A stretch of DNA of 62,817 nucleotides from Psammoneis japonica. Lineage: Eukaryota. Positions within the stretch are counted from its first letter, which is position 1, and each line of letters opens with the position of its first letter. The notes under the pieces were generated by a model. It saw nothing but the letters and a program-made list of their open reading frames with translations, was not told the origin of the DNA and searched no databases. Shown here one piece after another: positions 20,639-59,346 of the stretch. Location of the stretch: positions 1 through 62,817 of the forward strand of contig QPGO01000015.1 in the NCBI GenBank assembly GCA_008632985.1, given 5' to 3'. The position numbers and the translations under genes were made by a program.

Positions 20639-21778
20639 ATGACGACGAACGCGCCCTCTGAGTCGCAGCCAGAGAATGAGCCCGTTCCAATGTTCGCAAC
20701 CTCCAATCCGGTAAGTTCTCCGAGATCAGATGAGAAGATTTTGTACATGAGCCTGCTTGTTTTTGTGCTTTTTGCGGTATGAGTTGTGACGCTCCAATCG
20801 AACGGAATCAGTAATAGCAGGTTCAGCTTTATGTACAAATCTACGGCCCATCCAGTACAGAAGATCCGCCTCAAGAAGCCACATTTTTTTCTGATTTGCT
20901 CCTTTCATTCCTCTCGTTTTTTTTAGACGGTCGATGAGCCTAACGTTGATCTTGATGATATCTTTCGTGATTGCTACTTTGGAGATTTTCCCGTGCCACC
21001 GTTTGTTCAGAGTGGAGCTGTCGAAACCGACGCTGGCCAGAAAAGAAGTGCGGAGGAAGCCGACTTGGACGAGGGTGGCGATTCCAAAAAGTCTAGTAAG
21101 CCTCTTACAGAACAGCAAAAAATCGAACGTAGGGAAAGGAATCGTGAACATGCGAAACGTAGTCGATTGAGGAAGAAGTTTCTTCTTGAGAGTCTGCAGG
21201 AGCAAATTCATGGGCTACAGGGCGAGATCGAAACACTCAAGAATATCATTCAAACTGAACTCCCAGACAAAGCTGATGCTCTTCTGTCGTCCGTTACCGC
21301 CGATAAAAGTAAATACAAACCTCTTCCGATGCCCAGTGGATTTGGTCCTGTCAAGACTCTGATGGAACCTGACTTTCGTCTCATGTCAGCTCTTTCCGGT
21401 TCGCAGCAGAATTTTGCCATCTCGGATCCTAGTCTCCCCGACAATCCCATTGTGTACGTTTCACAGGGTTTCCTCGACTTGACTGGGTACAAGCTTGACC
21501 AGGTGCTCGGGAGAAATTGCCGTTTTCTCCAGGGACCAGGTACTGATCAAAGTGCCGTCGATGTTATCCGTCGTGGTATTCGTGAAGGGATCGATACTTC
21601 TGTCTGTCTCTTGAACTACAGAGCTGATGGAACCCCTTTCTGGAACCAATTTTTTGTTGCGGCCCTTCGTGATGCTGAGAACAATGTCGTGAACTTTGTC
21701 GGGGTACAATGCGAGGTTTCAAAGGCAGTGGTAGACAAGCAGATCTCGGAGGGAAAGACGCCGGCTCTTTCGTCGTGA
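20639..21778 (+). CDS. AUREO1c: Aureochrome blue-light receptor (bZIP-LOV), 1c type; intron 20711-20926
   Basis: bZIP ERRERNREHAKRSRLRKKFLLESLQ and LOV domain with GRNCRFLQG. DFRLMSALSGSQQNFAISDP resembles diatom AUREO1c as I recall it; the subtype is less certain than the family. Confidence 0.93.
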
Positions 21779-22829
21779 GGGACGGGGAGCTTGATGGGAG
21801 TAGGGAAAGATGCATGTCGCCAAAACAACTCTAGTAATGATAACGTGAAGGTTTAAACAAAGTTAAATGACATCGAATCGTTTCCTAAATCGGAGTGGCA
21901 AAAGCGGTGATAGATTGACACACTCGACTACATGCTAAATGAAAGTCGGCCAAATTATTGGACGATTTTCAGACGGATGTAATGGCTCTTAGGCTGCTTT
22001 GAACGGCTCAAAAACTATGAACGACTCTCCCTTCACCAGAGCAGTGTGATGCTGATGTAGACAGGACGGATATGAACACACCTTTCTTCTGTTGTTGAGG
22101 AATTTCTGCCAATGCCTTCATAATGAGTTTCACCAGCCAACTCTCTTGCTGCGACACATGCTGGCATTCCATGCGATGGTGAAGCAATTGCAATGGCGGT
22201 CAAGAAACAAACCCACATAATGACACCACCACTGCCAGTGACAAAGGGAGGGAGAATTGAGGAGCTGTTTCAGTGATTGTGCAAACGACGTGATGTTGCC
22301 CCCTCTTTCTTTCTTTTTCAACAGACCCCCATCTGCAATTGTCTCCTTGTGGCCACAGGTGTCAAGGTTGGCTTGGCAAATGACATGAGTTAAGCATGCA
22401 ACTTTATCGGTGTAAAAGAGAAAAACATGCCATGTGTGACTGTCATGCCCATCATGGTTGATCTTGACTTTGTCGCGGTTTGCAGCAGCGATGATCCACC
22501 TTCAGCAGCTGAGGATGCTGGCCTCAACTGAAGGTTTGAAATGTCATGGAGAATCCTGCTTGTTCAGTCTCTCTCTGCTCTCATGATGTTTAAAATGCTT
22601 GGTGTTGATGCAGCTGTGATCAATTGCCACAATTTGTTCATTTGCACTTGCCCACAGAAAAGACAATGCCCAAAAGACTGCAGCCAAAGAACAATTGGGG
22701 GGACTCAGAGACAGCAGCACCAGAGAGGCAGAGGCAGGGCCACACAAAAAGTGATGCAGCTTGATCTAAGGCACATCACAGGGGGGGGGCAGGGAGAAAA
22801 TAGAGCTGCAAAAAGGAAGCCACAAATCC

Positions 22830-23060
22830 ACGTGGTTTGTTTGTCCCACAGCCATGTCAGAAGTGGTTCAAGCATTGTCTTGAGAAAGATGTGCAAGCTG
22901 ACAGACAGAGATGAAGGCCACATGGAGCATGCGGCAACATGCATGGCATTCAGTGAACTTAATTTTTCATGCCAAAACCAAACAGTCATTTCAGTGGATG
23001 TTGTTGATGATGCTGAGATGACACCACAGATGCCATGTGCTCCAGCTCGAGAGTTGTCAA
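22830..23060 (+). repeat. Diverged direct repeat A, copy 1 (copy 2 at ~28690-28885)
   Basis: Collinear shared blocks: gtcagaagtggt, caagctga..., catggagcatg/catggaacatg, tggatgttgttgatgatgctga and gctcgagagtt/gctcaagagtt. Confidence 0.7.
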
Positions 23061-26000
23061 CAGTGTTTAGAATCAACAGCCATCATCAAGAATGTTCTTG
23101 CTTGCACACAGTTGGAAAGTGTGCTTTTGCAAACCAGCCATTGAGTGGTGGTGCCAGTCAACAACTTGGTGAGACACCACAATCCACCTGACATGACTGA
23201 ACCATAGAGTGTGCATGAGATCTTTGCAACAAAAACAAGACACACTGTGTTTTGCCAGTGCTCGCACTGCAACAGGTCACCCCATTTTATTTTTAAAGCC
23301 ATGTGGCAGTTGGCAGAGCATGGGGCTCCAGCCAGATTTGCACTGAGCAGTTGTTGTGCAAATGGGCTCTCATCCTTGTCTGGCTGGCACTGGCAAACAC
23401 AGGAAGCTTGTTCAAAATGCTGCGTGCATGTTGATGATGACACCCTGGCTTGGAGCAGCCTCAGAAGCCTGGGCTCAATTGAGAACATCAAAGCCTTGAT
23501 GCCCCCTCCCTCCAGTGCCAGCCAGAGCCGAGTCTGTGGCAAAAATGAGGAGGCTCCACCAAATTGTGCCACTTTTTCCCTTTCTTGCCAGCAGACTCCA
23601 ACACAACAAGGGCAGTTGTTCAGCACTTCTTGGCCCTGGTTGTGACTGCACCAGCTCCCAACAACTGTGGACAAAAGCTCATGTGCAGATGATGAGATGT
23701 GTGCCCAATTGCTGCCAACAAAGCCATGTTTCCATGTGCAGTGTCTCATGAAAAGATTCTTGCATTCTCCCAAAGCACTGTCATGGCAAATGGAGCTCTC
23801 CTGCAGTGCTTCAATGATCATGTCCAATGCAATGACTGCAGCTCCAACTGGCCCACAGCCTCCAACACCACAGTGCAAGGCATTGCCTTTAGCATCACCA
23901 AGTTAGAAGATCAGATCACAACAAGCACCTGGAAAACACAAGCGACAGCTTCCCCAAGACAGCCCCCACACACAACAGATGTGCTGCCATTCATGTCATC
24001 CATCAATGGAGATGTTGTTCCTTCCAAACTCTGTGAAATGGGTGCCAAAAAATTCAAATGACAGGCTGCAACAGCAGCAGTCCAGGTGCAAAGCTGGATG
24101 CAGCACACCCTCAAGAACACCAGTTTGGTTGCTTGCTTGTGCTCAACCAAGGAGTGGTGGCAGCTGTGCAGGCTGGTGATTTCCACAGGATCACAGTGAT
24201 CTGCCAAACAACTTCAGCACCTTTTTCTTGGCATGCCCTCTGGTTGCACCAGGAAACAATGAGAAGGAGACAGTGGCAGCAGCAGTGATTTGTCTCCACA
24301 TGCAAGTCACAGCTAGAAGGAAAAGGTCTTTAAGAAAAGGACATCAAGAAGATGTCAGAGCAAAAACTCAAGTGGCCAATGATGGCAGATGCTCTCTCCT
24401 TTCAGATTTGTGACTTTGCTTGAATTCTTGTTGTTGTCCTGGGTGAGAAATCTCCTTCTGTTTTTGACATCAAGAAATGTTGTCTGATTTGCTGCAGCCA
24501 GCAGGAAAAGGACAGAGCTTTTTCTGGTGAACTCCCTTTGGATGCAGTCCAAAAGATGTCCAACTCTGGCTCACCAAATTGTGCCAACACTGAGGTGCAA
24601 TGCAACACCATTTGTGACTTCCTGGTTGGCTTCACAGATCTCCAGTGCAAAACAGCACTCAACCACTTTGCTTGAACCACCCTCACCTTTGTCACTGCTC
24701 AGGTGATGGGAGATGAACAAGGAACAAAATGCAGGGGTAAAGACAGATGCCAAGGGCCAAGGCAAAATGGTGCAAAATGACTCTCTGTGGTGCAATCCTG
24801 GAAAAGCTCAAGAAAGGTGAGGACTGTGGCAAGACCTTTCATTCCCACATCAAGTCCCTTCTCATCATGATGGATGGTGCTCATCTTTGTGGCAAGAAGA
24901 GTCATGTCAAGGGCCACTGTGTGACCTCTTGCAACTTCAATTGCAGCGAGCCAAAGGGAGCCACATTGGTTGTTGCTTGGTGGCAGCAACCTGGTCCACC
25001 ACCCAAACTGCCAAACACTCCAACCCTGCCTTTGATGATGTTTGTGTGTGAGCCCCAAACTCCCAAGCAAATTGCAAAAAATGGCAGGTCAATGACAAAT
25101 GGATCAAATCAAAGGCCGTCACACCCAGAACACTGTTGACTTAGTCTGAGAACAAGTTGATGAGCAATGACAAGCTGAGCAGCTGACTGACTCTTTCCTT
25201 GCCAGATGCAACTCAAGGATCCACACAATGCAAAAGTCTGCTGCAAAACCCAGTGACAGCTTTGTGTGTGTTCCATGGCTGCAGTGTTTCTGTGAGACAA
25301 GCAGCAATGCCCATGGCAATTGATGCACTGGCATGCCCAAGTTTGAGCTCTGAGTTTCGCCACAGTTGATGAGGAGCATGGAGCTCATGAAGCAAGGGAT
25401 GCTGATGGGAGTGCAGTGGGACAGACAGATGCATGGCAGGGCTTGGTTTTTCCCTGTGCTTGTTGCTGGCAAGTTGATGCTGTGCTTCCACCACAAGCAC
25501 CATGGCATCATTCATGAATGTTTGTCATTGCCAAAGCACATTGCACCACAGCGCTGATTGTGGCATCATGTTCCAGCCACAGAAAAGTTCCATGCTTTGT
25601 TTCACACAATTTTGTGCACAAGCATGTTGTTGCTTGTTGGGGACAGGCTGACAAGTGGTGGCATGTGTTTGTGAAGCTTTGAGTGTGCAAAACTCTCATG
25701 ACCAGCTGGAGGACAAATGCATGAGTGGTTGGGGGCAATCTGAGGCAGGTCAAAACAACACAGTGAAGTGTGGGAATTGTCAAGCCGTTTCAAATTTGAC
25801 CTCAGATGATTGACACACCACATCCTCAACATGACTTGCAAAGTTAATGAGCACATGTTCCAGCCATGTGCAAATCAAGCACCATGCACCAAAAACAACA
25901 TTTTTGAGACTTGTGATCAAGCTTTTGCCCCAGCCCACCAAAAGCACAGATTTGTCCAAACATCAATGTTTTGCAACACTGGCAAGACTCATGTCAGTGT

Positions 26001-28689
26001 TGCAATTTCATTGTTTTTGTGGCATCAATGTTTTTCATTGTGACAAATGAGTTGCAATGCCATGGATGAATTTGACCAAAATCTTGCAGATTTGCACTCC
26101 ATTGCTGTTTGAGTGTTTTCAAGACAAAACAATCATTTGCAATGTCATCTGGCAGGTCACGCTCCACCTGCAAAGGCTCCATTGCAGCCAATGTGCTGAT
26201 GTCATGCCAACCAGCATTTGCTCTGCAGAAGAAATTGTGGCATGCATCCCACGAACAAGACTTGGGCACCAATGAAAAAGGAAATGCTCAACTGTCCACA
26301 CTCTGTGGGACACTCACAAAAGCCAACACACATGTGAGCATTTTTTATCAACACACTTCACACACAAGGATTGTGTCATTTGCACTCAAAATGGAGCATT
26401 CAGGGCTGAAACATGCTGAGTGCAGCAATTAAGAAGGCTTGGCTGCCAGAGATGTTTTGCCTGTTGCCAGGAATGAAGAACAAGATGATGATGGCAAGGC
26501 ACCAGCACTCTGATTGCACAATTCATTCTGACTGTCAATCAGCAACACTTGTCAGAGTGGGCACGACAAGCAAAGGCCAACACAGACAGGACCCTCCAGC
26601 AACAAAGAGCAGGAGGGAGCAATGGCGGTGAAAGTTGGGGCAACAAAAACAACTCATTCTCAGGTGAAATCGTGGTGTGTGCAAACAAAGAGGCTTTGCA
26701 ATTTTAAGAATTGAAAAGTCATGGGAAGGGTGGCAATGTGAAATCTTTGAACTTTGCCTTGCAGGGCAGAATCACAAAGGAAAAAATCACTTCATGACTG
26801 TCCCTCATGGTGCTCAAATCTGCACAAGATTCTGTGCATTTGGTGGTGTTTTGGCACATCAATTCCCACACACCAACATTGGATGCCAAGATGGGAGAGC
26901 AAGGCAGCACACAAAACTGGCAGAGAAAGCAAAGAAAAACAACAGAAAGTGCTGCAAACATGGGATGCCACTTTGCAATGAGACAACACAAAACAAAACA
27001 AAAAAAGTTGCAGGCAGCAAGATGAGTGCAAACCAGCAGCAGGACAACAGGGGAAATGAGGGCCCACCAACTTTGATTGGTTCTGTGCATGCAAGGGAAG
27101 AAAGGAAGTGAGACGAAGCATGGCTTGCATGTGGGTTGATTTGTGCTCAAAGGAAATTTCTTGCCACACTCTTGTGCACTGCTGTCAAGGCAATGGCACA
27201 TCCACCTCTGGCTGGCTCCACAAGTCCAACTTCAACAAGGACAAGAGCCCCATGCAACTGACAGTCATGCATGAATTCACCTCCATCATGATTCCAGCCT
27301 GAAGCCAGTTGTTCAGTCAATGGCTCCCGGACAAGAAAAACTTTGTTGGCAACTGTTTGTTGAGAGACAGAAATCTTTGTGATGATGCTCTTGCTGCTTT
27401 GCTCTGTCATGTTGTTCTCAAGCAGATTCCTTGAAATTTTCTCATCTCCCACTGCCCAATGAGGCCATTTCATGGTTGACCTCCTTGACACCAAAGTTGC
27501 TTGTCAACAAGCCAACACCAAAGAAACCAACAAGAAGTGCAGTGCAGCTGGGCTCTCAGAGACAACCTTCTCATTGACAAACTCACTGTCACCCAATGCT
27601 GTCACAAGAATGGCAGCACTTGGCTCAATGTTGCAAAGTGTTGGCAGCAGGGATGACTGTCAGAGCTGCTGGTGTGGACAATGTGGTGCCAACCTTTGAG
27701 TCTTGTGACTGGAAGGGCTCAAGACTTGACAAGGACAGATGCTCATCTCACCTTCTGCTGTGACAATGCCAAGGACACAAGAGCCAAGATGGACAACAGA
27801 AGCAACAGAAAGCAATCACTGCCACACTCCTTGGAGCCCTTGCCAGAATTGCAAGGATGCAGCCATGAACTAAATGACCATCAGCACATGTTTTTTGTGA
27901 TGTGATCCTGCAAATGCTCCAGAACCAAAGGCAGCCATTGCACCAAACTTCTTTTGCTTTGAAACCTCCATTTCTTCCTCTCCAACAGGGAGTTGTCCCA
28001 CTCAGACCCAGATCCAGCCTTGGTGGACACTGCATCAATCAACCCCAAAGTGCCAGAAGAATGAAGAACAGTGCAGCACAGCCGCTGCATTCAGAATGGG
28101 CAGCAACATGCTCCAAACAGTCAAAGCCTGGTCAGCAGCAGCAGCAGCAGTGCACAGAGTCTGAGCTTGTGCCCTCCCTTGGCAACACTCAACTCACTGG
28201 TCTGCACCATCCAGACCAATGGCAAGCTTTGGAGCCTGCAATCACATCTGCCACATTGAAATGTGAGCTGCAGCAAAGGCAATCAGAGAGGAGTGGTTGG
28301 GATGCAATCACACAAGATCAGTGCACGCTCCATTCGCTCAGGCATGGCAATGGCGCTGTGTCTCAACAATGCACCAGTCCACTTGTCAGCACTCATCAGA
28401 ACCCACAGATGCAAGTGGCTCTCATGAAGCCCAACCCATCCCATGCCAAGCACAGTTGAGGGCACAACCACCATCATGGCTCATGCTGTTCATGCAAGTG
28501 GCATGATGGGCTGCAATGGAAATTTGTGATGGCACACCAACTGCAGGACTGTCGGGTTGCTGGGGAGTGTTGCTGCTCATGTCCAGGAATTAAAATTTTC
28601 TTGGGCCAAGCAACCGGCATGTCTTGATGCACTCCATTTTTGCTTGGAGCTGGATCTCACAACACCCGTTGCAAAGACTTGTTACATGG

Positions 28690-28885
28690 GTCATTGTTTG
28701 TTGGTCCTGTGAGTCAGAAGTGGTGTGAGCAGCCACAGATGTGCAAAAGGCACACAAGCTGATGGGCAGATGGAGGCTGCATGGAACATGATGTGCTGAA
28801 GTCCATTTCTTGTCAACAACAATGGATGTTGTTGATGATGCTGAAACAACACACATTGTGTGTTCTGGCTCAAGAGTTTTCATGA
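28690..28885 (+). repeat. Diverged direct repeat A, copy 2
   Basis: Collinear similarity to 22830-23060. Confidence 0.7.
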
Positions 28886-30769
28886 GCAGCCTTTAAAATT
28901 ACCCAAACCCACCCTGCATCAGCTGCAGGACTGTGGGGTCACTGCAGAATGTTCAAATCTGGGGTTAAAAAGGACTGGGAGTTCTCAACCTGACATGAGA
29001 GGATCTTGTTTCAATGGGCAGCTCATTGCTGTGGTGACACTGCAGCAAAGAGGAGCAACCAAAGGAGCATGAAGATGTGACTAAGTTGACAATGAAGTGC
29101 TGCACCAAGGAAATAAAAGACACTTGCAAATTTTGCAATGGTGTTGCTGATGTGATGCCCAACAGTCTGGTGGCAACAAGTCTGTCCAGCTTTGATCTGC
29201 ACCCTGACAGCATCAACACCTGCAGCCACAGATGTGATGATGACAGTGAGTTGTGTCAGATGGGGGTGAAATTCATGAGGGCAAGCCCTCCAAAACTCAT
29301 GGCCATGGCAAACAATGGACACAATTGAGACAACAAGTTGCCAGAGACAGAGGATGAGGACATTGGGGCACCAGCAAGATTGCTTTCCCACCACTGACAA
29401 AGGAGTTTGGAACACGTGGCATTTGACTTTGACAATGGGCAGACCTCTCTCCTCTGCATGTCAGGACAGCATTTGTGAGCCCTCAGAAACCTCCTGTGTG
29501 GCAAACAAAAAGTGCAAGGGAGGCCTTGACAAGATTCTCAAACAAGCAAAGCATGGCTCACCAAATGGCATTCTCTGAAACCTCTGCTGCATGATCAATG
29601 GCCACAATGGAGTTCAGCACAAAAAACCAGAAGAAGAGATTTGTGTCATGTGCCACCTCTGCCCAAGCTGGGGATGGACCTTGCCACAAAATTGCCAAGT
29701 GGATCACCTGGAACAAAGCTCAAGAAAGTTCAAAGAGAGTGCATGGCTCAACAGGCAAAAGCTTGCCAGCTGCCACACCAAGGTTGCACAGAGTGTGGCT
29801 GACCAGGAGAAGGCTGCTGCAGGCCATTGAACTGTGTCTTGCTCTGTTTGTGACCAAAATCTCACTGCCTCATTTGGGGAAAGCTCCCCTGTGGTTGGTG
29901 CAGCACAACCAGCTTTTTGCAATCAGCTGTTGTTGTTTTTCATGCCACAGCAGCATGCATCAAAGCATTGCTCAAGCACGCAAATGTTGCAGTGGATGGC
30001 CACATGTGATCTTGAAATTGCACACAAAACTTCTTCATGTTGGCACACTGTCTCACAAGAAATGTGGGTGCCTGGCAAAGGCCAAGAAGCAACGGCAGTG
30101 AAAACAACAAAAGACAACAAGGTGGGAGCAACCCCCAAGTCAAAAGCCAAGCAGCTGCCTTTTGAGGCTAATTTTGAGCCTTGCGCTTGAGACTCTCACC
30201 TTCCAAGTGACATCCCACACCAACAGCTCAGTTGAACAAGGGTGTGTTGGTCCCCAGTGACCCTTTGCCAGGAGATCCAGTGCACAGTGCAACAATCATG
30301 GCATCTGTGTGGGGCATTGCAAGCACCAGCTGTTGGCAATGCACTCCACTGCTGAGCTGACAAATGACCTCCCTTGATGCATCAATCACAGGCCCCAGCT
30401 AGCAGCACAGAGCTTGTGCAGCTCTTGTTTGTGTCAGCAGCTGGTGCAACTCTTCCTTGACACTGGCATCATGGTCATCATGTGCTGGAAGCAAGTTTGA
30501 AATTTTTGATTCTTCTCAGCACCTGCAAATGATGTGTTGAGAGATGTTGGTTTGCAATTTGTGCCACCTTTCAATGGCTTGCTGCTCTGACAGCACTTTT
30601 CACAAAACAACCACTGCCTCTTTGCCCAAGCATGCAGCAGGGCCAAGAGAGCACTTGTTGTGGCTCAGCACAGACTCAGCACTCCTTGAAAGAATGGGTT
30701 TTTAAGCAGGCAGAAAACAACAGAGCCGGGGTCATGAGAGGGACAACTGGCAGTGCAACACAAAAACAA

Positions 30770-31165
30770 TGAGTGACTGGGTGGGCAGCAAGTGTGGCAG
30801 TGCAGGCTCAGAGCCACAGATCTGCACAACCAAGATCAGCAACACAGCAAATCCCAGGGAAAATGGTGCTGAAGAAGACATCAACTTTGGCATGAGAATT
30901 GGGAACAATTGTGAGAATGGGAACAACATTGGTGATTGCAGTGTTCTGGATTTCAAGGCAGAAGAATGAGATCAGCACAACTCTCAAGGTGGGAAAGGCA
31001 GAAGGATGAATGGTGGGATTGGCTCACTCTAAAATGAGCGATGGCCCCATCACCAATCAAGGCAAATGGCAGCCATTTTCAGGAGATTTTTTTTCATGTC
31101 TGTTGGACCCAAAGATTGGAAGATGTTGTTTTGCATGTTTTTTGGAAACACCATGTGGGAGAGGA
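30770..31165 (+). repeat. Diverged direct repeat B, copy 1 (copy 2 at ~32075-32455)
   Basis: Shared blocks gagtgactg, aaccaagatcagc/aaccaaggtcagc, gctgaaga..catcaa..atgagaa.tgggaacaa, tcaccaatca, caggagat and gacccaaa...gaaacacca. Confidence 0.8.
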
Positions 31166-32074
31166 AACGGGGGTTGGGTTTGGGGATGCAACCACAGCCA
31201 GACAGAAAGACAAGGATGGGCAAGCCTTTGGACATTGATCAACAACACATTCATGCACACACCAGTGCCATCACAATGGGGCTTGTTGACTTCAATGTTC
31301 ATCTGAAACATTTCATTCATGACACCTCACTCTGCGGACTGGGGAAAGAACATGTGCACTGTGATGCTGCACCTTGCTGGACCTTGCTCTTTGAATGTGG
31401 TGTCAACAGGATCAAAGATGGAGGCACAATTGACAGGTTGAGAGCAGCGCATTTGCCAGAGCCTTGCTGTTGCAATGGGTGCCCAGTCTGCATTCTAACA
31501 GCCTGAAAACAAACCTCAACACTGACAAGATCCCACAAGCTTTCTTGGCTGCACAACATGATCATGAAGAAGGAGATCTTCTGAGTGCTGGTCTGGCACA
31601 CTCAACTGATGGCAGACCATTGTTCATGAATGTCCAACCAAACACAGCCCTGTCATGAAGCACAGATCCATCACTTCCAGCTGCAGCTTGCACAGAACAA
31701 TCTGATGTGCCAGCTCTGACAACAAAACATGAAATGCTGTGCAAGAGAATGGCATTGATTCCTGCTCTGGCAGCGCACCCAACCACTCCTTGATCATGTC
31801 TGGAAGAGGCAGGGGAACCTTCATGATGAGCATGGAGCAAGGCAGAGCAAAACTCCAGCACCCATTGTCAAGGGCAGAAAAATTTGTTACTTTGCTGAAC
31901 ACATTTCACAACAGCAACAACAACAACCATCATTTTTGCCCAAAACAAAAAGCAGATTTTGAGAGCACTTGTTGTGGTGGCTGGTCAGTCGCAAAAGAAC
32001 AGGTTTTCAAGCATGACAGAAAATGGCTCAGGCATGGGGTGAAAGGAACAATCAACAGGGCAGCATGTGAAATG

Positions 32075-32455
32075 TGAGTGACTGAAGAGGCAGCATGTGG
32101 TGCTGTGGATCCAGCAGCAGATCTTCTTTCAACCAAGGTCAGCGGCACAAACCTGAGGGAAAAGAGGGGCCGACACGCTGAAGATGGCATCAATTTCAGA
32201 ATGAGAACTGGGAACAACAATGATGAGAGCAGGAACAGTGTCAACAACCACAGTGCTCTGGATGTCACCAGAGGCAGAAGAGTGGGGGCGTCTGTGTGAG
32301 GTGCGCGGGGGGCGGGTTTTGGCGGCTGATTCCTGTCACCAATCACGATGCATGACCACAGCCGTTGGCAGGAGATCTGCCATGTTGTAAATCCAGACCC
32401 AAACATTAGAAGCTGTTGTTTCTACATGTTTGTTTTAGAAACACCAAGGGAGAGC
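32075..32455 (+). repeat. Diverged direct repeat B, copy 2, straddling the right edge of the TpA-depleted block
   Basis: Collinear with 30770-31165. Its distal part still carries TA and CG. Confidence 0.8.
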
Positions 32456-32724
32456 AAAGGGTTTGAATGTGTTGCTTGGGACAGCTTGGAACGGTGGGAG
32501 GTTGGATGCGCCGGATGGAAAGACGAACGCGGGTACGTCATCGGACGTCGACGACACCACAGCGATCAGCGATCACATCAGTGCCATCACAAAGAAGTCG
32601 CCAGTCCAAGTCCCCAAGATAACATTCATCTCAACAACGAGTGCCGCAGGGTACGAGGTCGAGAGGAACTGGACAAACAACAGCCGAAGCTCTTACTCTG
32701 TGTGGCTACTGCTCATCATCAATC

Positions 32725-34395
32725 ATGCTAAAGAAGTTTTGGCGTTGTGCGCTCCTACTGGGACTTGTGGCAATAGTTGCCCCTACCACTGAGGCATCGG
32801 TGGAATCGATTCAAAGAACTGCTTTCTCGCCGAAACCCTATGTCACGGATATTAAGAACGGCGGTTCCTTGAACCCGGCTGTACATGCGAGCCTAAGAAA
32901 GGTCACGGAATCGTACCGTGGAGGTGGTGATTCGTCTGGCGAAAGCGACGCGCTGGTGGGTGCCGTTGCATTTACTGCCATCGACAAGATTTCTAGGGAG
33001 CTGTTCACGAAGTACAGCATCCCTTTCCCTTCTCAGTTGGGGGCATGCATGATCATGTTTACAACGATGGTGCTAGGCGAAGAGCTTGTACCTGGATTTG
33101 GAGATAAGATATTTTCCTTCTTGAATCCAGGTGCCCTTTTGTTGGCCAAGTGGCTTCCGGTGTTTTTCGTTCCTGGACTGGCGATGCTTCCACTGGCGCC
33201 ATCTATTGGATCTCCTATTGAGGTGCGTTGTATTGAAGCATTTATTATGTATCTTCTGGGACGTGATTCTGCTTAATGACGCCACTAACTTCTTCTCGCT
33301 TTTGTCGTACGCCCTTTGTATCCTACCGGTGACTAGGTTGTCAAGGTGCTTTCGGTGATTATCCTTGGCTTTATTTTCTCCTTAAGTTCCACGGCCTTTG
33401 CTGTGCTGGGCTTGAGGGCATCCATGGGGGCTGTAACGTCACCTGAAGCACCACCCCAGGTGCCGAAGCGCAGACAGGCGAAAGGAAATGATGCTCCCGC
33501 CCCCCCTCCCAAGGCCTTCTCAGACTCCACGATGGATTTCCTCCTCAAGGGAACAGTGTTGTCTGGAGCTATTAGCATAGCGGCATCACGCAATGATATG
33601 GACTGGGCAACGCCTCTCCGCACTATCAACATGCTTTTTGTTACTGTAACTTCGTACGTGTGGGGAGCTCGTTTACCGTCTGGGTTCAACAAGGTCGTGC
33701 ACCCACTCGTTACCAGCACTGGTTTGACCCTGGCTGCCATGGCAATCACTGGGTTTTGCACTGGCTCTACGTTCATGGATGTTTTACGGACGTACAAGGT
33801 GGGTTCTATGAGTCCACTTGAGACTGGTGCCGGTGACGTTTTGTTGTACCTCCTCGGCCCGGCTGTCGTGTCGTTTGCCATGTCAATGTACAGTCGGAAA
33901 ACTCTCTTGAAGGAAAATCTCTTTGTCGTTATTGTCGCCATGTTTGTTTCAAGTGTTGGGGGACTTTTTGGAACTGGCGCTTTTGTGCGCTTAATCAACC
34001 TAGGTGGTGCTAGTGACACATTTTTGCGTCGCTCGGTTTTGTCACGCAACGTTACAACTGCGCTGGCCATTGCTCTAACATCAATGATTGAAGGTAACCT
34101 CGCTATCGCCGCCAGCGTAGTGGTTTTGACCGGGATTATCGGTGCTACCTATGGGAGGACGCTACTAACAGCAATGGGGATTGAAGACCCTGTATCACGC
34201 GGCCTCGGACTTGGAGGTGCAGGTCAGGGGCTAGGGGTGGCTAGTATGATGAGTGAAAAGGACGCATTTCCTTTTGCGGCTGTATCTATGGTACTCACGG
34301 CGGTCTGCGCTACAACCCTGGTTTCAATTCCAGCTGTGAAGGATGCCCTTTTGAGTCTCGTGGGGCCTGTTACAGTAGCTCCAGTGACTGCGTAA
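32725..34395 (+). CDS. LrgB-domain membrane protein, PLGG1-like (plastid glycolate/glycerate translocator) paralog 1; intron 33223-33336
   Basis: IPFPSQLG, LLAKWLPVFFVPGL, KVVHPLV, GAGDVLLYLLGPAVVSFA, SRNVTTALA, SRGLGLG and EKDAFPFAAV motifs. Signal peptide. Confidence 0.9.
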
Positions 34396-36389: not shown

Positions 36390-37975
36390 GAGAGTTGGAA
36401 AAAAAAAAAGAGCTCGTCGCAAACAGCAAAATAGCACTAACACCATACCAGCGCTGTCGAGCCCTCTCCGACCCACCACACCCCCCATACCCCTACTATA
36501 CCGCCATATAACATCGCCCGTGCAGCGCAACGAGCGATGCAACCTCCCGCCGCGACGCTGTGGATCACGCCATTGTTGTCCTTGTTGGCCGCTCTTCACT
36601 CACGTAGAAACCCTACCACAACCTACGTGTCGACACACATCACACCCATCATCACACCCATCACACGTAGAAATCCTACCACGTTCTACGCTCCCGACAC
36701 CACCATCACGATGACCGAAAACGCCCACCATGACGCAACCGCGTCCTCCCTCGACGCATTTACCCTCCTCGACGACAACTCCCATACGGACTCCGACTCT
36801 GACCCCGAAACTAATGAGTCAATCTTCGACACTGCGGACACCACCGACGCAGCATCCGCTCCCTGCTCCCATCCGCTCCCTGCTCCCATCCGATCACGAC
36901 ATGCCTTGGGCCGACATCTCCATTGCCACACCCCTCAACCCTGCAGACGACACCGAGCATGAATCCATCAATTGCCGCCGAGTCTCCTCCATCAAAATCA
37001 AGGACATCGCCCCGCCAGACGCACCCCACCCCAACCTGGATTTTGACGAATCTCAGCACAGAAGCCGTCACGTCGTCGCTCAGCATCAGCTTCTCACAGC
37101 GCTGCGCAAGCAGGCCACTGAACACCACCACACAGCCTTCCGGGACCTCCGCACCCGCATTGACACCCCACAAGCCCAAATCCAAGCACAACACCTGACC
37201 GCACATCTCGTTGGCAACCTCGCACCCGGCACCCTGCCCCCACGAGCGACGCCTGGCACCTGCACGCACGCTCTTCCCTTTGACGCCTCTCACCAACTGT
37301 GCCTCTCCTCCTTTCCCCTTTTTCACAGGCCCGACAATTGGTGGGCACTGGTCCACACTGATTCGCCTCCGCCCCCTGCCCAACGGCGCGGTGCGATCAT
37401 GCCCTTTGCCATTTTGTTGCACTTGCCCCCACCACTGCCCGGCGCACGCACAAGCAACGCGCCGGGTGGCAATTTTTGTCGGAACCCTCACTGTCCCTTG
37501 GACCTGGCCAGACATGTGACCGACAACATGGCGGGGATCAGCAGTGCCAGGGGACACGGACATCGCGCCTTCGGCGCGATGCGCCGTGCTGGAGCTTCGT
37601 GCCAGAAAACCTGGGGGGCCTCGCTGTGCAATGCAGCCCCAGGTTCCCTGCCATTCTTGAGATGACAGGGCGGGGTGACATTCAAGGAGCCCGTCCTGGG
37701 CACAACGTCCTGGGGGCCTTTTCCAGACCTGAGCGGGCATCCTTGACCATGCGCATCAAGGGTGTCGACTGCCTGCAGGGGATCAGGTTTGGCTGCATCG
37801 CAGCCCCCTGGAGGTGACACATGCTTCAGTGGTCATTGGGGCCCCTGGCATGAACCAGGGAGAGCACAAAAGATGCTGCTGCCTCAACCCACTTGAAGTG
37901 GACACTGCACACACACACACACACACACCCAGCACTGGAGAGAGCAGGTCTGCCGATGAAGATTCCCCCAAGCTC
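36390..37975 (+). mobile_element. Degenerate C-rich retroelement-like fragment, TpA-depleted from ~36850 on; ends with a (CA)n tract
   Basis: Strong C/A strand skew, broken Pro/His/Thr-rich frames and an imperfect ~63-nt tandem duplication at 36600-36690. Family not identified. Confidence 0.5.
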
Positions 37976-38386
37976 TACTGCCACCCTCTATAGCTAGTAG
38001 AGAGTAGCTCCACTACTACTTAGCAGCTGCTGTAGCTCAAGAATGTATCTCTGTGAGTTCTAGACACCCTGCCTCCGCGATGTACGCCTGCTCCGGCAGG
38101 CTTCCTGAAATGCCCAGTTGAAGCTTGTACGCCCATAATTTATAAGACTTTGATGACGTCACGACTGGTGTTGGATTACCTATATGTCTATACTTGTATA
38201 GTATTATATATGTTTTGCCGCCATTTTTGTGTCGCGATCTCACTTTTCACATTCATCTTCAACCTGCTTCTTATTTTCGAACCTCATCGCGGCTCGAGGA
38301 TCTTCGCCAACCGTTACGTTGCTGCTGTCCTGTCTGACTTCAGCTTATTCCATTGCTTTCAATTGCTCGGGGCTTCCCAAACGAAA

Positions 38387-40042
38387 ATGTGGAAAGTTTC
38401 AGTTTGGCGGATCTTTGCCGCCACTCTTCTTCTGGTCGCATCCGATGCGTACTCCCCTCCGCACGTCTTTACAAGTCGGGGACACCAACACATTGGACAT
38501 GGAGCATTTCGTAGCTCGTCAATTCGCCTTTCACATAGAAGCCGAGTTTCTGGTAAGAAACTATTGGTTGGCATGTCAAAGCGCCGAGTCACAAAACAAC
38601 TGAGAATGTCGTCCAACGAAGAACCTACTGTCAAGGCGGTTGGAGCTACGTCGATGTTGGTTCTCTTTGACATTGGCTTTCGCAGGCTTTTCAAATTACT
38701 CTCGATATCATTTCCATCATCGTTGGCAGGCTGCGGTTTCTTGTTTGCGAGCCTTTTGACATTTCCAAAGGGTCAGCAGATTTACAATTTTCTTAGTCCA
38801 GGAGCGGCACTTTTGGCAAAGTGGTTACCTGTATTCTTTGTACCCAGCCTCATTACTCTACCATTGGCTGCAGATCTCGGAACGGCCGCCGAGGTAGGAT
38901 CTTAGCGCTTAAATGCTGAGAGATAAACGAACCATTCTGATGTATAACCTTCTTTGCTCCTTGCCAATTGCTCCTTGCTTTCATAGGTTGCAAAGATTGG
39001 AGTTGTTGTCGGCGGTGGTTTCTACTTTTCAGCGCTGACCACTGCATGGTCTGTGTTGGGAATCAGAAAGCTCGTATCCAGAAACAAGAGTGAAAGGATG
39101 GGTAATGATGCAACAAACACAGCTGATGAAGCTGATGAAATACCTGTGGTTGTCAATGGTGAATTTACTCCTGAAGAGAAAGCGCCATTTTCGGATGAAA
39201 CAGCTTCCTTGCTGAGAATCGTTTTGAGTCTCACTGCCTCTGCTGCGTTAGTGACCAGTACTTCACCGGATCATGCGCACCTTTTGAATCCAACGTGCTC
39301 GGCTTTCATGTTAACCGCGACTCTGCACAACTTTGTCTTTGGTGCCCGGTTGCCAAAAAAATTCACAAAGTTGGTCCACCCGCTCGTTACATGCACCGCT
39401 CTGACATGGGTTGCAGCAAAGCTTCTCGCTTTTGCAACCGAAACTTCCTTTAAATCTGTACTCAAGAAGTACCGCACGGGATCATTGGGTCTCTACACAG
39501 CAGGGGCGGGAGACATTCTCCTATTCTTGTTGGGTCCTGCGGTTGTGTCCTTGGCATGTCAAATGTACGACAGGAGGAAACTAATGAAGGAAAACATGGC
39601 AGAGGTGGCAACAGCGGTAGGAGTTTCATCCGTTGGCGGCTTGTTTGGTACTGCTGGGCTCGTACGGCTTTTGAATATTGGCAATCCTGTTGTCCGTCTT
39701 TCACTGTTATCAAGAAATATTACGTCTCCGCTGGCAATGGCCATTGCGTCGATACTCGGTGCAGATGTTTCGCTTGCCGTTACCATGGTGGTCCTGTCCG
39801 GTTTGATCGGTGCTAACTTCGGTGCATCAATTTTAGACGCATTTGGGATAAAAGACGCTGTCGCACGTGGTCTCGGAATTGGGGCGGCGGCGCATGGATT
39901 GGGAACAGCCGCCTTTGCGAACGAGAAAGATGCTTTTCCATTCGCGGCTATTGCAATGGCTTTGACTGCTTCTGCCACCACCGTTCTAGTCTCCATCTCT
40001 CCCATCAGGAAGGCGGTTATACAGCTAGCTTTGGGGTCTTAG
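38387..40042 (+). CDS. LrgB-domain PLGG1-like paralog 2; intron 38894-38986
   Basis: ISFPSSLAG, LLAKWLPVFFVPSL, KLVHPLV, GAGDILLFLLGPAVVSLA, SRNITSPLA and ARGLGIGAAAHGLGTA motifs. Signal peptide (SDA-Y). Confidence 0.9.
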
Positions 40043-41149: not shown

Positions 41150-42929
41150 GTGCTTTAGTCGCGGACCCTGATGAAAGGAGGAGACGAGGAGAAAGTTGGA
41201 GGTGTCTTCCTTGCTCGAACTTGTAGAGTCTTTAAATAGAAGATTAAGGGAGCCTATGTAGAGCGGAAGGGAACAGCAGAGGGAGGCACGGAGGTAGCTG
41301 TAGAGACGGTAGAGTAGAAGGGTCGAAGGACGCAAGACGAAGGGCGTTTTGAAGAAGGTATGGGTGAGGAGGGAGCAGGGAGAGAGGAAGTGAATCGGAG
41401 GATGTGCGTAGAAAGGTGAAGAACGACGTTGTAGCCAAGAGTTTGGGTGGCCCACTGGGATGGGGTGGCCGTACGGTAGGTGCTCCCAAAGCGATCGGCG
41501 GACAGGCGACGCCATGCGAAGTCAGCGGAGGGAAGGATTGCAGACGGAGACGACAAAGCGTAGAGGAAGGCGGAGTAGGAGGCATCGGAGTGACGAAAGT
41601 CAGAGGAAGAGGACCAGGGTGGCTTGGGCTGAGAGCAGACGGAGGAGGATGTAGAACCAAAGAGCAAGCGGTGAGCAAAGCAGCCGAGACCACCAAGGTG
41701 ATCTGCAGTGAAGGGGAGCAGGAAGATGCCATCGTTGTCAAGCGAAGAAACAACAAGGGATCAATCGGCAGAGGAAGTGGAGGGGCCAAGAAACTTCAAT
41801 CTTGCGCTCGAGTGGTGTGCCTCAGTTAAAATAGGAGAAGAGGGGGCAGGCAGACCTGGAGGAGGGCGAGAGGAAGCTTGAGGGACGGCAACGTCTGCTG
41901 CAATGTGGTGATGGCGGGAGGGAGCGGAAAGGGAGGCGGGAGGGGGAATTAAAATGCCGACATCGGCGGGACGGAGGAGCGGGCAGGTGGGGAGCAGGTT
42001 GGTGGGTTCGAGATGAACGTCATCAGGGGATCGACAGAACTCTGCAAGAGGACCCAAAGTTTGGGCTGGGATGAAAACAGCATCACGGAGACCATTGGAG
42101 AGCTTGGACTTGTGAGCACGGCGGCAAGAAAAGGCATGATCACCACAGGCATCCAGGATGGCATGGCCACAGGGACAGGGAGTGTTGACAAGGGACGGAG
42201 GAAGGATGGGGAGATGAAGCTTGCGAAGGGCGGCAATGACGTGGGCGTCCGAAGAAAGGCGGGAGCTTGGGAAGCGACGGGAGAAGGAATGAAGAGGGAG
42301 GCTTGCAAGCGGAGATGGCAATGAAGGGAGTGAAGATTGCACGTCGTAAGATGAGTTGGCAAGGATGGAGGTTGCTGCTTGCTGCTGATGTTCATGGCAG
42401 AGGCGACGAGCCAGGCCAGGAAGAGTGGCCGATTTAACCAGGGCAGCCAAGGAAGAAGAGGAAAGGGCAGAGGCGGAAGCCAGAACAGGAGCATGACGGC
42501 GGAAGAGCATGTGGAGTCATGGGGAAGAGCGAGGGTTGGACCAGGAAGACAGGGAGAGCTGAAAGCAGCGCAGAAGGGAAACAGAAGTGCCAGATGGCAG
42601 GCTGACACCGTGCGAAGCAAAGTGGAGCGAGCGGAGAAGCGACACCAAGAAGGAAGGAACGGCAGCAGCTGTTGGATCCCGGAGACCAAACCCGCCTGAG
42701 GAGGCAGGAAGGAAGGCAATGGCAATGGAATGGCCAGGAAAAGGAGCGGCGAAGGAAGTGACGCAGTGAAGAAAGCGGTGAGCAACGGTGAGGAGGAAAT
42801 CTTGAAATGGAGAGGTCCAGAGAAAGGGGTCGGGAGGATTGTCGGGGTCGAAGTTGCAGCAGAAGTCAGCCCCAAGGAGGTGAGCAGAGGATGGAAGAGA
42901 TTGATTGTTGGTTGGGGAAACAGCGCGAG
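41150..42929 (-). mobile_element. 5'-truncated non-LTR retrotransposon (CRE-like, restriction-like endonuclease), flanked by 5-bp direct repeat CGTTT
   Basis: GGFGLRDP RT-thumb-like motif, zinc knuckle CPCG...DACGDHAFSC, RLE motif RPADV...AADVAV and FLLPFTADHLGGLG; several frameshifts. CGTTT occurs at 41145-41149 and 42930-42934. Confidence 0.8.
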
Positions 42930-43465
42930 CGTTTCTTGAACTTAGAAACTTGGACGGAATGAACTTGCTGCCGACATGACGTCAGCGGTGCTGACGACAC
43001 GACGCACGATAACAGCATGGAGTTACGACTAGCACAATGTGAACTGTAAAAAACGTCCCGAACACCCGTATCGCATTTTTTGTACATCTATATTTAACGA
43101 TAACGTCTTTTAGCAAATAATTAGGGCATTTTTACAGATGTAACCCATACAATTTTTACTCAAAAATCGATACTTGTAACACAATTAGAAGATTTTTTAA
43201 TGTTTCCTATTCAAATTGAGAGTCAAATTTTGATATTACTTTTTCAACTCCGACTGCTTCATAATCAATAAACAAGTTCGAATATTTTATTAAAAGACGT
43301 GGCCGGCGTTTAGGTCCATTTTGGCGGCTCCGACATTTGAGTTTACTTAACACCAGACATTTCTATAGGACTTAAGTTCGTAGAGCAATAAATACGTAGA
43401 CTGGTACAAATTCTACATCAGGAGTCATGTGCAGTCATTTTACATACCAATCATACAGACATTTA

Positions 43466-44479
43466 CTATATATTTAAATACAAAGTATTCAGTTTGTAAT
43501 AGTCTATTTTGCACATTGTGCTAGTCGGTAGCCTCATAGGGCCCCAAACGACAAACGAGCAAAACGTGACTCGGTCGAGCGTTGGCCTCCGTCCAAACAT
43601 TGTCTCAACAAGATTTACACAACAATCACAAGTTGTGTCGCCCACTCGTTCCCAGCAAACACCGCACGTCAAAAGAGTTGCAGGGGACACGGCTGTGTGA
43701 CCGACGATGCCCTTTCGCTTGTCTGCACGCACAACCTGCTTCAGACCTGGCATGTCATCTCCATTGTTGACTGCAGCTTTCTTTTTATCGTCGTCCAATG
43801 AAACAATCAAGGATGCTGACTGGCTCACATTTATTTCTTGACACGTCTCGTTGAACCCATCTTGGAATTTTTCCCAGAGTGGCTTTTTCTTGCGAGCCGT
43901 TGACGATGGCGCATCGCCTGAACGGCCCATTAACTTCCACACCATTTTGCACTTCTCTTTAGTCATTAGCCCAGCACAATTTATGTCGTCATCATCACAC
44001 AACTCTTCAACTGACAACCGACATGCCTTTTGCTTGCAGTGGGTGGCAAGAAATTGAGAAGCTTCTTGAAACTTGAGCGACAACTCTGACTCCAGAAGTT
44101 GCATGAGAGGACGTGCACTGCCCATAAACAGTGACGCAATGTCCTCAATAGGATCAATCGATTTGAATTCTTTTCCTGTGAGTTTTTGCACCCTCTCGCG
44201 ACATCCCTGAATCTCTGCTTTGGCCGTCTCCCACACCTTTTGGGGAGCTTGGCTAAAGGCAATCTTGACATCTTTCCCATCATTGTCCACTTTCCATTTT
44301 GGACGGTCCTTTGACTGCTCGGTTCTATCACACTTATCCATCAAGCTGTCCTCAATCAAGTGGAGATCCTCGTCGCAAAAATTCAAGTCCTCTGTTGGAT
44401 TGAAATGCTCCACCCAATCTGATTCGGACGTCGTCACCGAGTGCAACGCCGATTCATCCATTGGTGCAAGTGAACTCAT
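43466..44479 (-). pseudogene. Truncated, mutated DDD transposase fragment (piggyBac-like)
   Basis: IVSLDDDK motif. The frame drifts after VTFCS, where D-R-G-Y would be expected. Cys-rich and Tyr-free over most of its length, and TpA-depleted. Confidence 0.55.
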
Positions 44480-44978
44480 GCATGGACTGAAATCTCAGTG
44501 TCGTCTTATGCAGGTAGAATCAGGGATGTGTGATTGTAAGACTTGGTTGGCAGCATAAAAAAATAGAAAGTGCACAAACTCGGTTGATTGCTGAGAATTC
44601 AAATTCGAGAATTCTTCCTTCAGCATGACCTCATCGTAGACTCTGTGCATGCAATGACCTTTGTACCAGGACAGCGTACAAGTCTACGAGCAGAAAAGCG
44701 GCGCGCTGCGGTTTCAGACGCAGCAACTACGGCGTTGATCCAGAACGACGCCATTGTCTCTTTTCGTTTGAGAGGTTCATGAATCTTGTTGGCATGGAAA
44801 CGTGCATCTACAGGATTTGCTGGTACAGTCCTACGTAGCCTCCTTTCGTGCCCCTGTGGGCACGAACGGACAAAAAACAGACGAAAATCTTCACGGGGGA
44901 TATCGAGCGCAGGAAAGTTCGATGCGATGGCGTGAGTAACTTATATGTCGCGTTATCGTCACCTTCCAAATCGATCTT

Positions 44979-49155: not shown

Positions 49156-49605
49156 GGTCTTCGTTGTATTGTTGCATAAATCGATCAGAAACGCGACGTA
49201 CCATGCAACAAATCGGTTGTTTCAATACGGAAAAAACTCCCGTGCTTCCTCCAAAAAAACACGGAAGGTACGGTTGCTGAAGAGGGGGTAACGGTCAGTA
49301 CAATGTGTAGAATTCAACGGGGAAATACTACGGAATACAACATGGGTTGTATTCCCGGGATAATGTACGAGTAGCCGGCTCCGGGTTCAGCGGTCATGCG
49401 GAGTGATGCGCTCCTCGTGACTGGTTCGTGACTTACGAAAACTGCATGGCGGTGCTGTGGTCGCGCTTTCTGAAGAAATCGCGACCACAACCGAGCGTTG
49501 ATCTTGGATGGTCGCAAGCTACAAGCTTCCATAATTTTGATCTCGTGACCAAGTATTTTACAATTATTCACCTCTCTAGGGCCCTAGAACGATATTCTGT
49601 GCAAA

Positions 49606-54848: not shown

Positions 54849-55358
54849 CTGTAGAGTGCGCGAAACGTCAGAATTGCGCGTTGGCGAAAACCACAACTTT
54901 TTTTCTCTCCTCCCGCAGCCGCACATCCCGAGTTTTGCAATTGACAACGCTTTTGGCCTCAAACGGCGGCGAACAAGGCATCGGCAGAACCGCAATCATT
55001 GTAAGAACATGTGTGTTGCTTTGTTTGTGAAAATCCACAATGAGTTCGTCGAGAAAAGTGAATCTCGTAGTCGTTTTGCGTGCAATTTCGCGTTGGGTGT
55101 TCCCGAGAACGCGGTTGCTTTTTCGATTTAGCGTTGTCCTTGCACGGAGAAACGCTGAATCGCAGCTTTGTTGCAATGTGCATCTTGCCCACATGCTGGA
55201 TCTTGGGATGCGTCTGTCTCGGCGTCGCCAGCTCATTGTTGTTGCTTCAAAGAGGATCCGCTCCGGGCTGTCCAAGGCACGGAACGTCTCTTTGTTGTGT
55301 TTGAAAGAGATTCGTTGCTTTGAATTTTTCAAAACGGGGATCTCGGTGTCGTGAAATC
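54849..55358 (+). repeat. Left inverted repeat arm (hypermutated copy, ~54-nt internal deletion)
   Basis: Manual alignment to the reverse complement of 59347-59910. Confidence 0.95.
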
Positions 55359-55464
55359 GTTGTGTGTCATCGGTGTTGTTGCCGCAGCATCCGTCTGTCA
55401 TGGCTCTAATGGCATGTTTGCCTTTTCTCGTTCCTTGAGTGCAGGTTTTGCATCACGTGGCACC

Positions 55465-57720: not shown

Positions 57721-57889
57721 CTGTTCGTACACTGCAAACAGATTGGTCATTGACTGGACGGACCATCCGATGCCTCCGTGCTCTGCCAGCAGATAAACCA
57801 CACATGGCGGCATTTTAAAACTGCAGTCATGGCTGCTCGCACACGTTCTAGATGGATCAGCTAGACGGAGCACAACTGTGTGTTTTAGT

Positions 57890-59274: not shown

Positions 59275-59346
59275 CATGATCAACACTCGACAAAGCCTGC
59301 ACTTCAAGCAACGAGAAAAAGGCAAACATGCCGTTAGATTGGCGAT

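Follow-up and report, generated by a model that had tools for sequence, protein, structure and literature searches.

The window analysed here, a 62,817-nucleotide stretch of Psammoneis japonica DNA (contig QPGO01000015.1), contains between two host genes a block of about 10 kb in which the dinucleotides TpA and CpG have almost disappeared and TpG and CpA have taken their place, with GC content unchanged. The block is a real feature, and together with TpA-poor transposons in the same window it represents a recently described kind of TpA hypermutation in a new lineage and on new targets; the GC-neutral, saturated end state reached in the block had not been described. The explanation that we consider probable is that two in-place, context-specific transition processes have been directed at one silent chromatin domain: a rapid, most likely enzymatic attack on TpA and a slow decay of methylated CpG.

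A Sharply Bounded Block Nearly Free of TpA and CpG

Dinucleotide counts over positions 22300-31900 (9601 bases) gave 35 TA, with an observed/expected ratio (o/e) of 0.05, and 40 CG (o/e 0.07), alongside 1060 TG (o/e 1.96) and 1207 CA (o/e 1.84). The original prediction, made by eye, had put about 35 TA between ~22.3 and 31.9 kb, which is the exact number, and had likewise described CG as very rare. It had also named tgca, catg, caca and tgtg as the dominant words of the block, and these rank 1, 6, 2 and 9, respectively, among the 256 tetramers. In the left flank (positions 1-22029) the o/e values are 0.58 for TA, 0.98 for CG, 1.15 for TG and 1.13 for CA, and in the right flank TA and CG stand at 0.52 and 0.90. 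Had the block kept the flank ratios it would hold ~354 TA, in agreement with the hundreds that had been anticipated, and ~524 CG. The combined TA and CG deficit amounts to ~803 dinucleotides (8.4% of bases), to be compared with a TG and CA excess over the flank ratio of ~890. GC content is nevertheless 0.479 in the block versus 0.481 and 0.491 in the left and right flanks. Similarity of the block's TpA ratio to that of genic or intergenic DNA would have told against the original prediction, and the ratio is instead 0.05 against 0.52-0.58 in the flanks.

When the whole window was divided into 500-base bins, 19 of the 125 had both TA and CG o/e below 0.2, and all of these form one unbroken run at 22501-32000, in which TA o/e never exceeds 0.15 and TG+CA o/e ranges from 1.74 to 2.15. 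The nearest comparable bin beyond the two edge bins begins at 37501 and is far milder (TA 0.26, CG 0.44). From TA and CG positions, o/e values and bins combined, the TA-depleted domain was placed at 22130-32390 and the core that is also depleted of CG (o/e 0.07) at 22300-32290. The left edge is a transition zone (22030-22500) in which TA is last dense at 22121 and CG persists to 22289, with a few more CG at 22408-22489. At the right edge (32289-32390), CG returns from 32289 and TA from 32388, and the next gene's probable start codon lies ~340-440 bases further downstream. The two depleted domains thus nearly coincide, the TA-poor one being slightly wider, and the block fills the entire space between its two host genes except for ~350-500 bases beside each.

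These borders bear on the simplest alternative, passive decay, according to which a genome-wide context bias against TA and CG acts without any targeting and the block is merely the oldest unconstrained DNA. Host DNA is indeed already TA-poor, as the flank values show, and the block carries no sign of function, the lengths of its open reading frames (ORFs) being those expected by chance (P = 0.11 for the longest). On the other side, both dinucleotides recover within a few hundred bases at sharp edges, and the other intergenic bins of the window have TA o/e of 0.39-1.0 and CG o/e of 0.8-1.2. Passive decay has further difficulties with the duplicated sequence and the transposons described below, and we regard it as unlikely.

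Duplicated Sequence Gives the Direction and Timing of Change

The block was compared with the window by BLAST in a purine/pyrimidine-coded alphabet, which is immune to transitions, with significance judged from three shuffles. Two internal direct duplications were found. The first has one copy at 30576-31301 (plus strand), entirely inside the block, and a second at 31881-32616 (plus strand) that spans the right edge and has normal CG and TA from 32290 on (score 147 versus a shuffle maximum of 44). The second is shorter, with plus-strand copies at 22831-23075 and 28692-28901, 5.9 kb apart; its two pieces are collinear, with scores (49 and 44) that are borderline against the shuffles.

In the longer pair, 10 of the 17 CG and three of the five TA that could be aligned in the outside part of copy 2 face CA or TG in copy 1. 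Because an outside half that retains CG and TA is set against a converted inside copy, the direction of change can be read from the pair, from TA and CG to TG and CA. As the right edge of the domain falls within copy 2, the converted domain ends mid-duplicate, so its extent does not follow that of the repeat. One and the same duplicate being half converted and half not is also difficult to obtain by passive decay.

Within the block, repeat pairs record the same history in another form. At 144 TG/CA sites, 27 were flipped (TG in one copy, CA in the other) and only four showed a single transition, while at other dinucleotides double transitions numbered 25 of 474 and single transitions 132 of 474, an excess of flips with a Fisher odds ratio of 4.1 (p = 3e-6). 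In the shorter pair, TG versus CA was the most frequent discordant dinucleotide combination (n = 12). TG facing CA is the outcome expected when an ancestral TA or CG has been resolved independently in each copy, and the flip share of ~19% is what would be expected if ~40% of the present TG and CA were converted sites. Conversion therefore took place after duplication. TG makes up 46.5% of the 2354 TG and CA sites in the block, both strands having been hit about equally, and the pattern fits many independent single events on both strands, a feature that passive decay would share.

The composition of the block is consequently due to mutation and is not native. Foreign or selfish DNA that arrived or evolved free of TA and CG, for instance as a means of escaping TA-directed mutation and CG methylation, would have been the alternative, and the failure to find a source element (see below) leaves room for such a donor. 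The TG-versus-CA flips and the CG- and TA-bearing outside half show, however, that conversion happened in place and after duplication; the block has no coding capacity on which selection for such a composition could act; and in the neighbouring transposons TA loss destroys conserved residues. A native or selected composition is accordingly very improbable.

Neighbouring Transposons Form a Graded Series

Near one end of the window lies a Copia-type reverse transcriptase (RVT_2; 61363-62817, minus strand), whose open frame continues beyond the end of the window, with TA o/e of 0.28 and CG o/e of 0.91. In a comparison with 60 homologues it keeps one of 10 conserved Tyr columns, five of the others being Cys and four His, and each of these changes is a single transition from a TAY codon (to TGY for Cys, to CAY for His). 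At query position 124, where Tyr is present in 100% of the homologues, the sequence reads VHVDD; this is presumably the YxDD catalytic motif. By contrast, 208 of 235 other conserved columns are kept, which is within the range of the homologues (6 of 60 are as low or lower). When 120 homologues were used, the pattern at the 12 conserved Tyr columns was CCHHHCHCHHYC: one of the 12 is kept and 11 are now Cys or His, whereas the next-lowest of the 120 homologues keeps seven. A Tc1-like DNA transposase (DDE_3 and HTH_32; 57718-59400, minus strand) has gone further, with TA o/e of 0.06-0.15 and CG o/e of 0.74-0.76. Set against nine homologues, it has Cys in place of all four conserved Tyr, and of the 80 conserved columns for other residues it retains 72. 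Both proteins have been inactivated by these losses, and the two frames nonetheless remain open, since TpA loss can only remove stop codons; the Tc1-like frame in fact extends ~100 residues past the C-termini of all nine homologues.

These comparisons show that the Copia and Tc1 copies lost their TA by mutation, and by mutation much faster than ordinary divergence. This tells against passive decay: with 11 of 12 conserved Tyr codons gone from Copia and its other conserved residues within the homologue range, the TA rate there must have been far above background. Host genes in the window keep TA o/e of 0.4-0.8, and the TA-poor DNA outside the block includes the Copia and Tc1 elements and three more stretches (36.5-38, 41.5-43 and 43.5-44.5 kb) without recognisable domains.

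Damage to a DNA transposon as well as to a retrotransposon means that an RNA intermediate is not needed. This touches on RNA editing, in which A after U in double-stranded transposon RNA would become inosine and be fixed in DNA by reverse transcription. The preference for U before A matches that of ADAR as discussed in the available sections of a recent preprint on the chlorarachniophyte Bigelowiella natans (10.64898/2026.01.13.699255), and the Copia element does have an RNA stage. Yet the DNA transposon bears the same damage, the two strands are about equally hit in the block, and the converted domain ends mid-duplicate and at gene borders rather than at element ends. We consider an origin by RNA editing exceedingly unlikely.

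A Crypton-like ORF with a GCR1_C domain (47191-49221, minus strand) has the ordinary values of 0.46 for TA and 0.87 for CG, with 3.2% Tyr. A series running from an intact Crypton through Copia and Tc1 to the block had been proposed, and it proved measurable, with TA/CG o/e of 0.46/0.87, 0.28/0.91, 0.06-0.15/0.74-0.76 and 0.05/0.07, respectively. TA falls first and CG falls fully only in the block. That TA is lost first and CG much more slowly speaks for two separate clocks.

The alternative is one process, in which the same enzyme or lesion pathway converts both of these self-complementary pyrimidine-purine steps, as a deaminase taking A and C alike might do. The TA-poor and CG-poor edges agree within ~100-300 bases, and ADAT2-type deaminases able to deaminate both A and C in DNA are cited in the available part of the B. 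natans preprint (10.64898/2026.01.13.699255). Against it, the two losses are uncoupled in the Copia and the Tc1-like copies, and the target base is 3' in TpA and 5' in CpG. In the viral regions of B. natans, moreover, 230 of 231 mutations were A:T to G:C according to the sections available, and CpG did not come up in a term search of the main text (10.64898/2026.01.13.699255). A single process is, in our estimation, improbable. Two context-specific transitions, TA to TG/CA and CG to TG/CA, converging on the same dinucleotides at unchanged GC content, as the original prediction had proposed, agree with the polarity of the duplicates, the flips, the graded series and the Tyr losses.

Several observations concern the Tc1-like element and its surroundings. 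In the part at 57718-58605 (minus strand), Val stands where all nine homologues have the Asp of a conserved SPDLNP stretch; the copy is dead, yet gene callers would still annotate it. Adjoining the transposase is a frame of 798 residues, ORF798 (55324-57717, plus strand), with TA o/e of 0.13, CG o/e of 0.75 and 0.8% Tyr, for which Pfam, the protein atlas and a homologue search at E <= 1e-10 all returned nothing. This may be an uncharacterised transposon gene, its frame kept open solely by the removal of stop codons through TA loss.

The Block Carries Few Traces of Its Source

Six-frame Pfam searches with X at stops detected no domain in the block (the best E values, 0.078 and 0.15, were both under the cut-offs for a match), Rfam gave no match at E up to 0.1, and Tandem Repeats Finder reported two tiny arrays only and no real tandem arrays. 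The longest ORFs, of 281, 219 and 193 residues, have lengths attained by chance in Markov simulations (P = 0.11, 0.18 and 0.23). In a transition-tolerant scan, each TG or CA was also counted as TA or CG, with penalised scoring and reversed-query controls. Four Copia homologues and the window's own Tc1, Crypton and ORF798 proteins scored no better against the block than their reversed queries (39-56 for both). As a positive control, Copia reverse transcriptase DNA that had been fully converted in silico and then given 0-30% random substitutions scored 180-907 in the same scan, versus 32-42 when reversed.

A piece at 25776-26060 (strand not assigned) is probably a fragment of a dispersed repeat, as many contigs of the public DNA run X1 match it and then diverge into unlike sequence. 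Summed depth, which is not a copy number, reaches 1665 in the bin 25511-26011 and 58-75 in most other bins, and loose contig ends lie at 25776, 25935, 25965 and 26052. The original prediction had taken the block to be made of repeats. That much is upheld in part, by the two internal duplications and this one many-contig piece; no source element was found.

The Block in a Public Sequencing Run

Run X1 contigs cover all 30 depth bins of the block, and two of its records, 6928 and 7757 letters long, depart from the window at eight and nine letters, respectively. This speaks against an artefact confined to the one assembly, with the reservation that run X1 may stem from the same sample as the window. 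Contig joints with sides of 20-33 letters were disregarded as unreliable. In the block, 18 bases differ between the window and run X1, and these were read as 15 events: two TA/TG, five between CG and CA or TG, two full TG/CA flips, three other transitions and three transversions or shifts. The two flips, and the high proportion of the few remaining CG and TA sites that vary, give no more than a hint that decay is still ongoing; this reading depends on polarity and on the relation between the strains, and base-calling error at modified bases may have contributed.

At 25704, run X1 contigs carry 21 extra bases, and there are ~20 single-base insertions elsewhere in the block. Such extra bases could be strain differences or small assembly errors on either side.

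A Model of Two Converging Processes

In the explanation that we favour, the block would be old, non-coding and partly repeat-derived DNA filling the gap between two host genes. A first process would turn TpA into TpG or CpA (A:T to G:C, on either strand), and would be fast, since nearby transposon copies with open frames have lost most of their TA and have CG that is barely touched. It would create no stop codon and would remove TAA and TAG, leaving frames open or lengthening them. A second, slower process would turn CpG into TpG or CpA, most simply because 5-methylcytosine is deaminated where silent DNA is CG-methylated. GC would be shifted in opposite directions by the two and so would stay at the genome mean. 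New TA and CG arising from other mutations would be removed in turn, giving a floor of ~0.05.

ADAT2/3-type transfer RNA deaminases have as natural substrate A34 after U33, a TpA context. An adenine deaminase acting on DNA is our leading guess for the enzyme behind the first process, which is likely to be enzymatic; candidates would include ADAT2/3-type paralogues and other nucleic-acid deaminases. Thymine-oxidising proteins of the TET/JBP-like kind would offer a different chemistry, T-to-C at TpA being identical to the A-to-G event seen from the opposite strand. Loss of CG would proceed by way of methylation, the chromatin targeted would be silent, and the whole may serve in defence.

A number of points weigh against this explanation. 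TA counts at the repeat that crosses the edge are small (three of five), and the direct evidence of TA loss comes mostly from the neighbouring transposons and less from the block. The alignments of the repeat copies are noisy, with numerous transversions (51 of the 399 columns aligned), and the order of TG and CA along the block reveals no runs coordinated by strand (z = 1.16), of the sort that processive deaminases often leave. No source element was found for the block by Pfam, Rfam or the transition-tolerant scan with the proteins of the window's elements, so that its description as repeat-derived, drawn from two internal duplications and one many-contig piece, is only partly shown. Finally, a 2019 mutation-accumulation study in a diatom reported no such signal in the sections available (PMC6604790).

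Flanking Genes and Other TpA-Poor Stretches

The genes on either side of the block have normal composition. On the left, the last exon of a host gene (20927-21778, plus strand) encodes bZIP_1 (7.1e-8) and PAS_9 (6.1e-17), the latter a LOV-type PAS domain. This pair of bZIP and LOV/PAS domains is the aureochrome architecture and points to a photosynthetic stramenopile such as a diatom. At 20858 and 20893, in the same gene, run X1 contigs split at about half depth (33/68), which looks like allelic variation in a diploid. On the right, the host gene at 32623-34392 (plus strand) consists of a first ORF at 32623-33276 and a second at 33337-34392 that is LrgB-like (LrgB, 5.2e-33). A second LrgB-like gene, preceded by a weak LrgA match, lies at 38057-40039 on the same strand, 5 kb from the first and with a DUF6817 gene between them, and the pair has the appearance of a gene duplicated locally. 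What was copied into the block is promoter-side sequence of the first LrgB-like copy.

The three TA-poor stretches without recognisable domains differ among themselves. The stretch at 36500-38000 is GC-rich (0.58-0.62), with TA o/e of 0.0-0.5 and open frames on both strands (316 and 314 residues); it encodes low-complexity sequence rich in Pro, Ser, Thr and His without a Pfam match, and may be a host low-complexity gene or another TA-converted element. Those at 41500-43000 and 43500-44500 have TA o/e of 0.05-0.35 and no Pfam match in any frame, and between them, at 43001-43500, the sequence is AT-rich and TA-rich (GC 0.33, TA 0.93). The plus strand of 41500-43000 is strongly purine-rich (GC skew 0.37-0.39, AT skew 0.30-0.39). 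A 534-column match of the block to the purine-rich 42.2-42.7 kb in the purine/pyrimidine-coded search (score 52 versus a shuffle maximum of 44) was rejected as probable low complexity.

Implications

TpA-directed hypermutation has so far been described once, in a 2026 preprint on one chlorarachniophyte in which it hits integrated viruses. Here, in a genome that looks like that of a diatom, its signature marks a retrotransposon as well as a DNA transposon and has reached saturation in a block of 10 kb, which would make it a wider and more general genome defence and not a peculiarity of a single alga. That TA and CG loss end at common borders suggests a single chromatin state recognised by both processes, which would link a new mutational defence to DNA methylation. 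There are consequences for annotation as well. Dead transposons with long open frames can be called as genes, yielding tyrosine-free proteins rich in Cys and His, and end-stage blocks escape repeat maskers and scans for low GC or for fungal repeat-induced point mutation (RIP) because GC is unchanged and homology has been lost; repeat content may thus be underestimated. Should the host be a model diatom that can be transformed, a direct test of the mechanism by knock-out of candidate enzymes would be feasible, which in our assessment is not yet the case in Bigelowiella.

A broader proposal is conceivable, though we lean somewhat towards doubting it. Diatom-like algae may actively defend themselves by editing adenine at TpA in DNA marked by its chromatin state, a mirror of RIP that is shared with the distant rhizarian Bigelowiella and is possibly old in the stramenopile, alveolate and rhizarian (SAR) lineage. 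Such a defence would spare no class of mobile element, hitting long terminal repeat (LTR) retrotransposons, DNA transposons and unclassifiable repeats, erasing Tyr codons and leaving frames open, and together with CpG decay it would bring about a GC-neutral erasure unseen by standard repeat, GC and RIP scans.

Relation to Known Hypermutation and Decay Systems

The closest parallel is B. natans, in which, according to the available sections of the preprint, mutation-accumulation lines had a thousand-fold rate in two integrated viral regions, 230 of 231 mutations there being A-to-G or T-to-C and all of those at TpA, and in which TpA-poor, CpA+TpG-rich clusters across the genome were enriched for reverse transcriptase and DDE domains, with an ADAT2-like deaminase as the candidate enzyme (10.64898/2026.01.13.699255, bioRxiv 2026). 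The original prediction did not take this precedent into account. The present case resembles it in the conversion of TpA to TpG or CpA on either strand and in TpA-poor clusters that go with reverse transcriptase and DDE domains; the excess of Tyr loss over other divergence and the differences from run X1 give indirect hints of a raised rate. Delimited stretches are affected here too. In the Copia and Tc1 elements these are selfish DNA, and host genes are spared, but for the block and the three stretches without recognisable domains such an origin is less clear. By the cut-offs of the preprint, the block couples TpA depletion with CpA+TpG enrichment in clustered windows, as in B. natans, and A:T to G:C change at TpA on either strand is found at 11 of 12 Tyr columns in Copia, at four of four in the Tc1-like transposase and at three of five TA in the block repeat. 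The two differ in that B. natans is a chlorarachniophyte (Rhizaria) in which the process was measured directly in lines, whereas here it is deduced from sequence. The targets in B. natans, giant-virus and virophage inserts, still have many TpA (Rho of 0.45 for the larger); here the targets are transposons and an unclassified block, depletion in the block is near-total and CG has been lost too. When the main text was searched for terms, neither CpG nor diatoms nor stramenopiles turned up (10.64898/2026.01.13.699255). In our literature search, TpA dinucleotides and hypermutation in this sense were paired only in that preprint, no TpA-directed mutation was reported for diatoms or other stramenopiles, and there was no report of TpA loss combined with CpG loss.

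The CpG half of the pattern looks like ordinary decay of methylated CpG, as known from vertebrate genomes and methylated transposons, in that CpG is replaced by TpG and CpA within a silent domain and a CpG deficit is paired with an excess of TpG and CpA. Mammalian genomes have a CpG o/e of roughly 0.2, and compared with them the depletion in the block is deeper (o/e 0.07) and local, in a genome whose bulk CG stands at ~0.9-1.0. In a diatom, all LTR elements tested were reported to be methylated, in CpG context according to unpublished data, and the available sections of the same paper mention no TpA-directed process (PMC2806351).

Deaminases of the APOBEC3 and ADAR families offer a further likeness, as they produce transitions with a neighbouring-base preference and act in animals against selfish nucleic acids, among them retroelements and viruses. 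Their substrate is RNA or single-stranded cDNA in the course of replication, and the G-to-A or A-to-G changes that result are biased to one strand, whereas here both strands of resident chromosomal DNA have been changed, including those of a DNA transposon.

The remaining comparison is with RIP of ascomycete fungi, in which C is changed to T mainly at CpA, creating TpA and stop codons and lowering GC. Sequences affected by RIP have a product index (TpA/ApT) above ~0.89 and a substrate index, (CpA+TpG)/(ApC+GpT), below ~1.03. In the block these indices are 0.063 and 2.11, and in the flank 0.64 and 1.23; together with a GC content of 0.479 versus 0.481 in the flank, they are the reverse of what fungal RIP leaves, and, as had been foreseen, scans for low GC or for RIP indices would miss the block. 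There is a shared logic, since in both cases dinucleotide-specific transitions riddle repeated or selfish DNA and inactivate transposons in sharp domains, but the outcome is the opposite, with TpA destroyed, GC unchanged and stop codons removed. Fungal RIP is thus a functional analogue of what is seen here, with its chemistry reversed.

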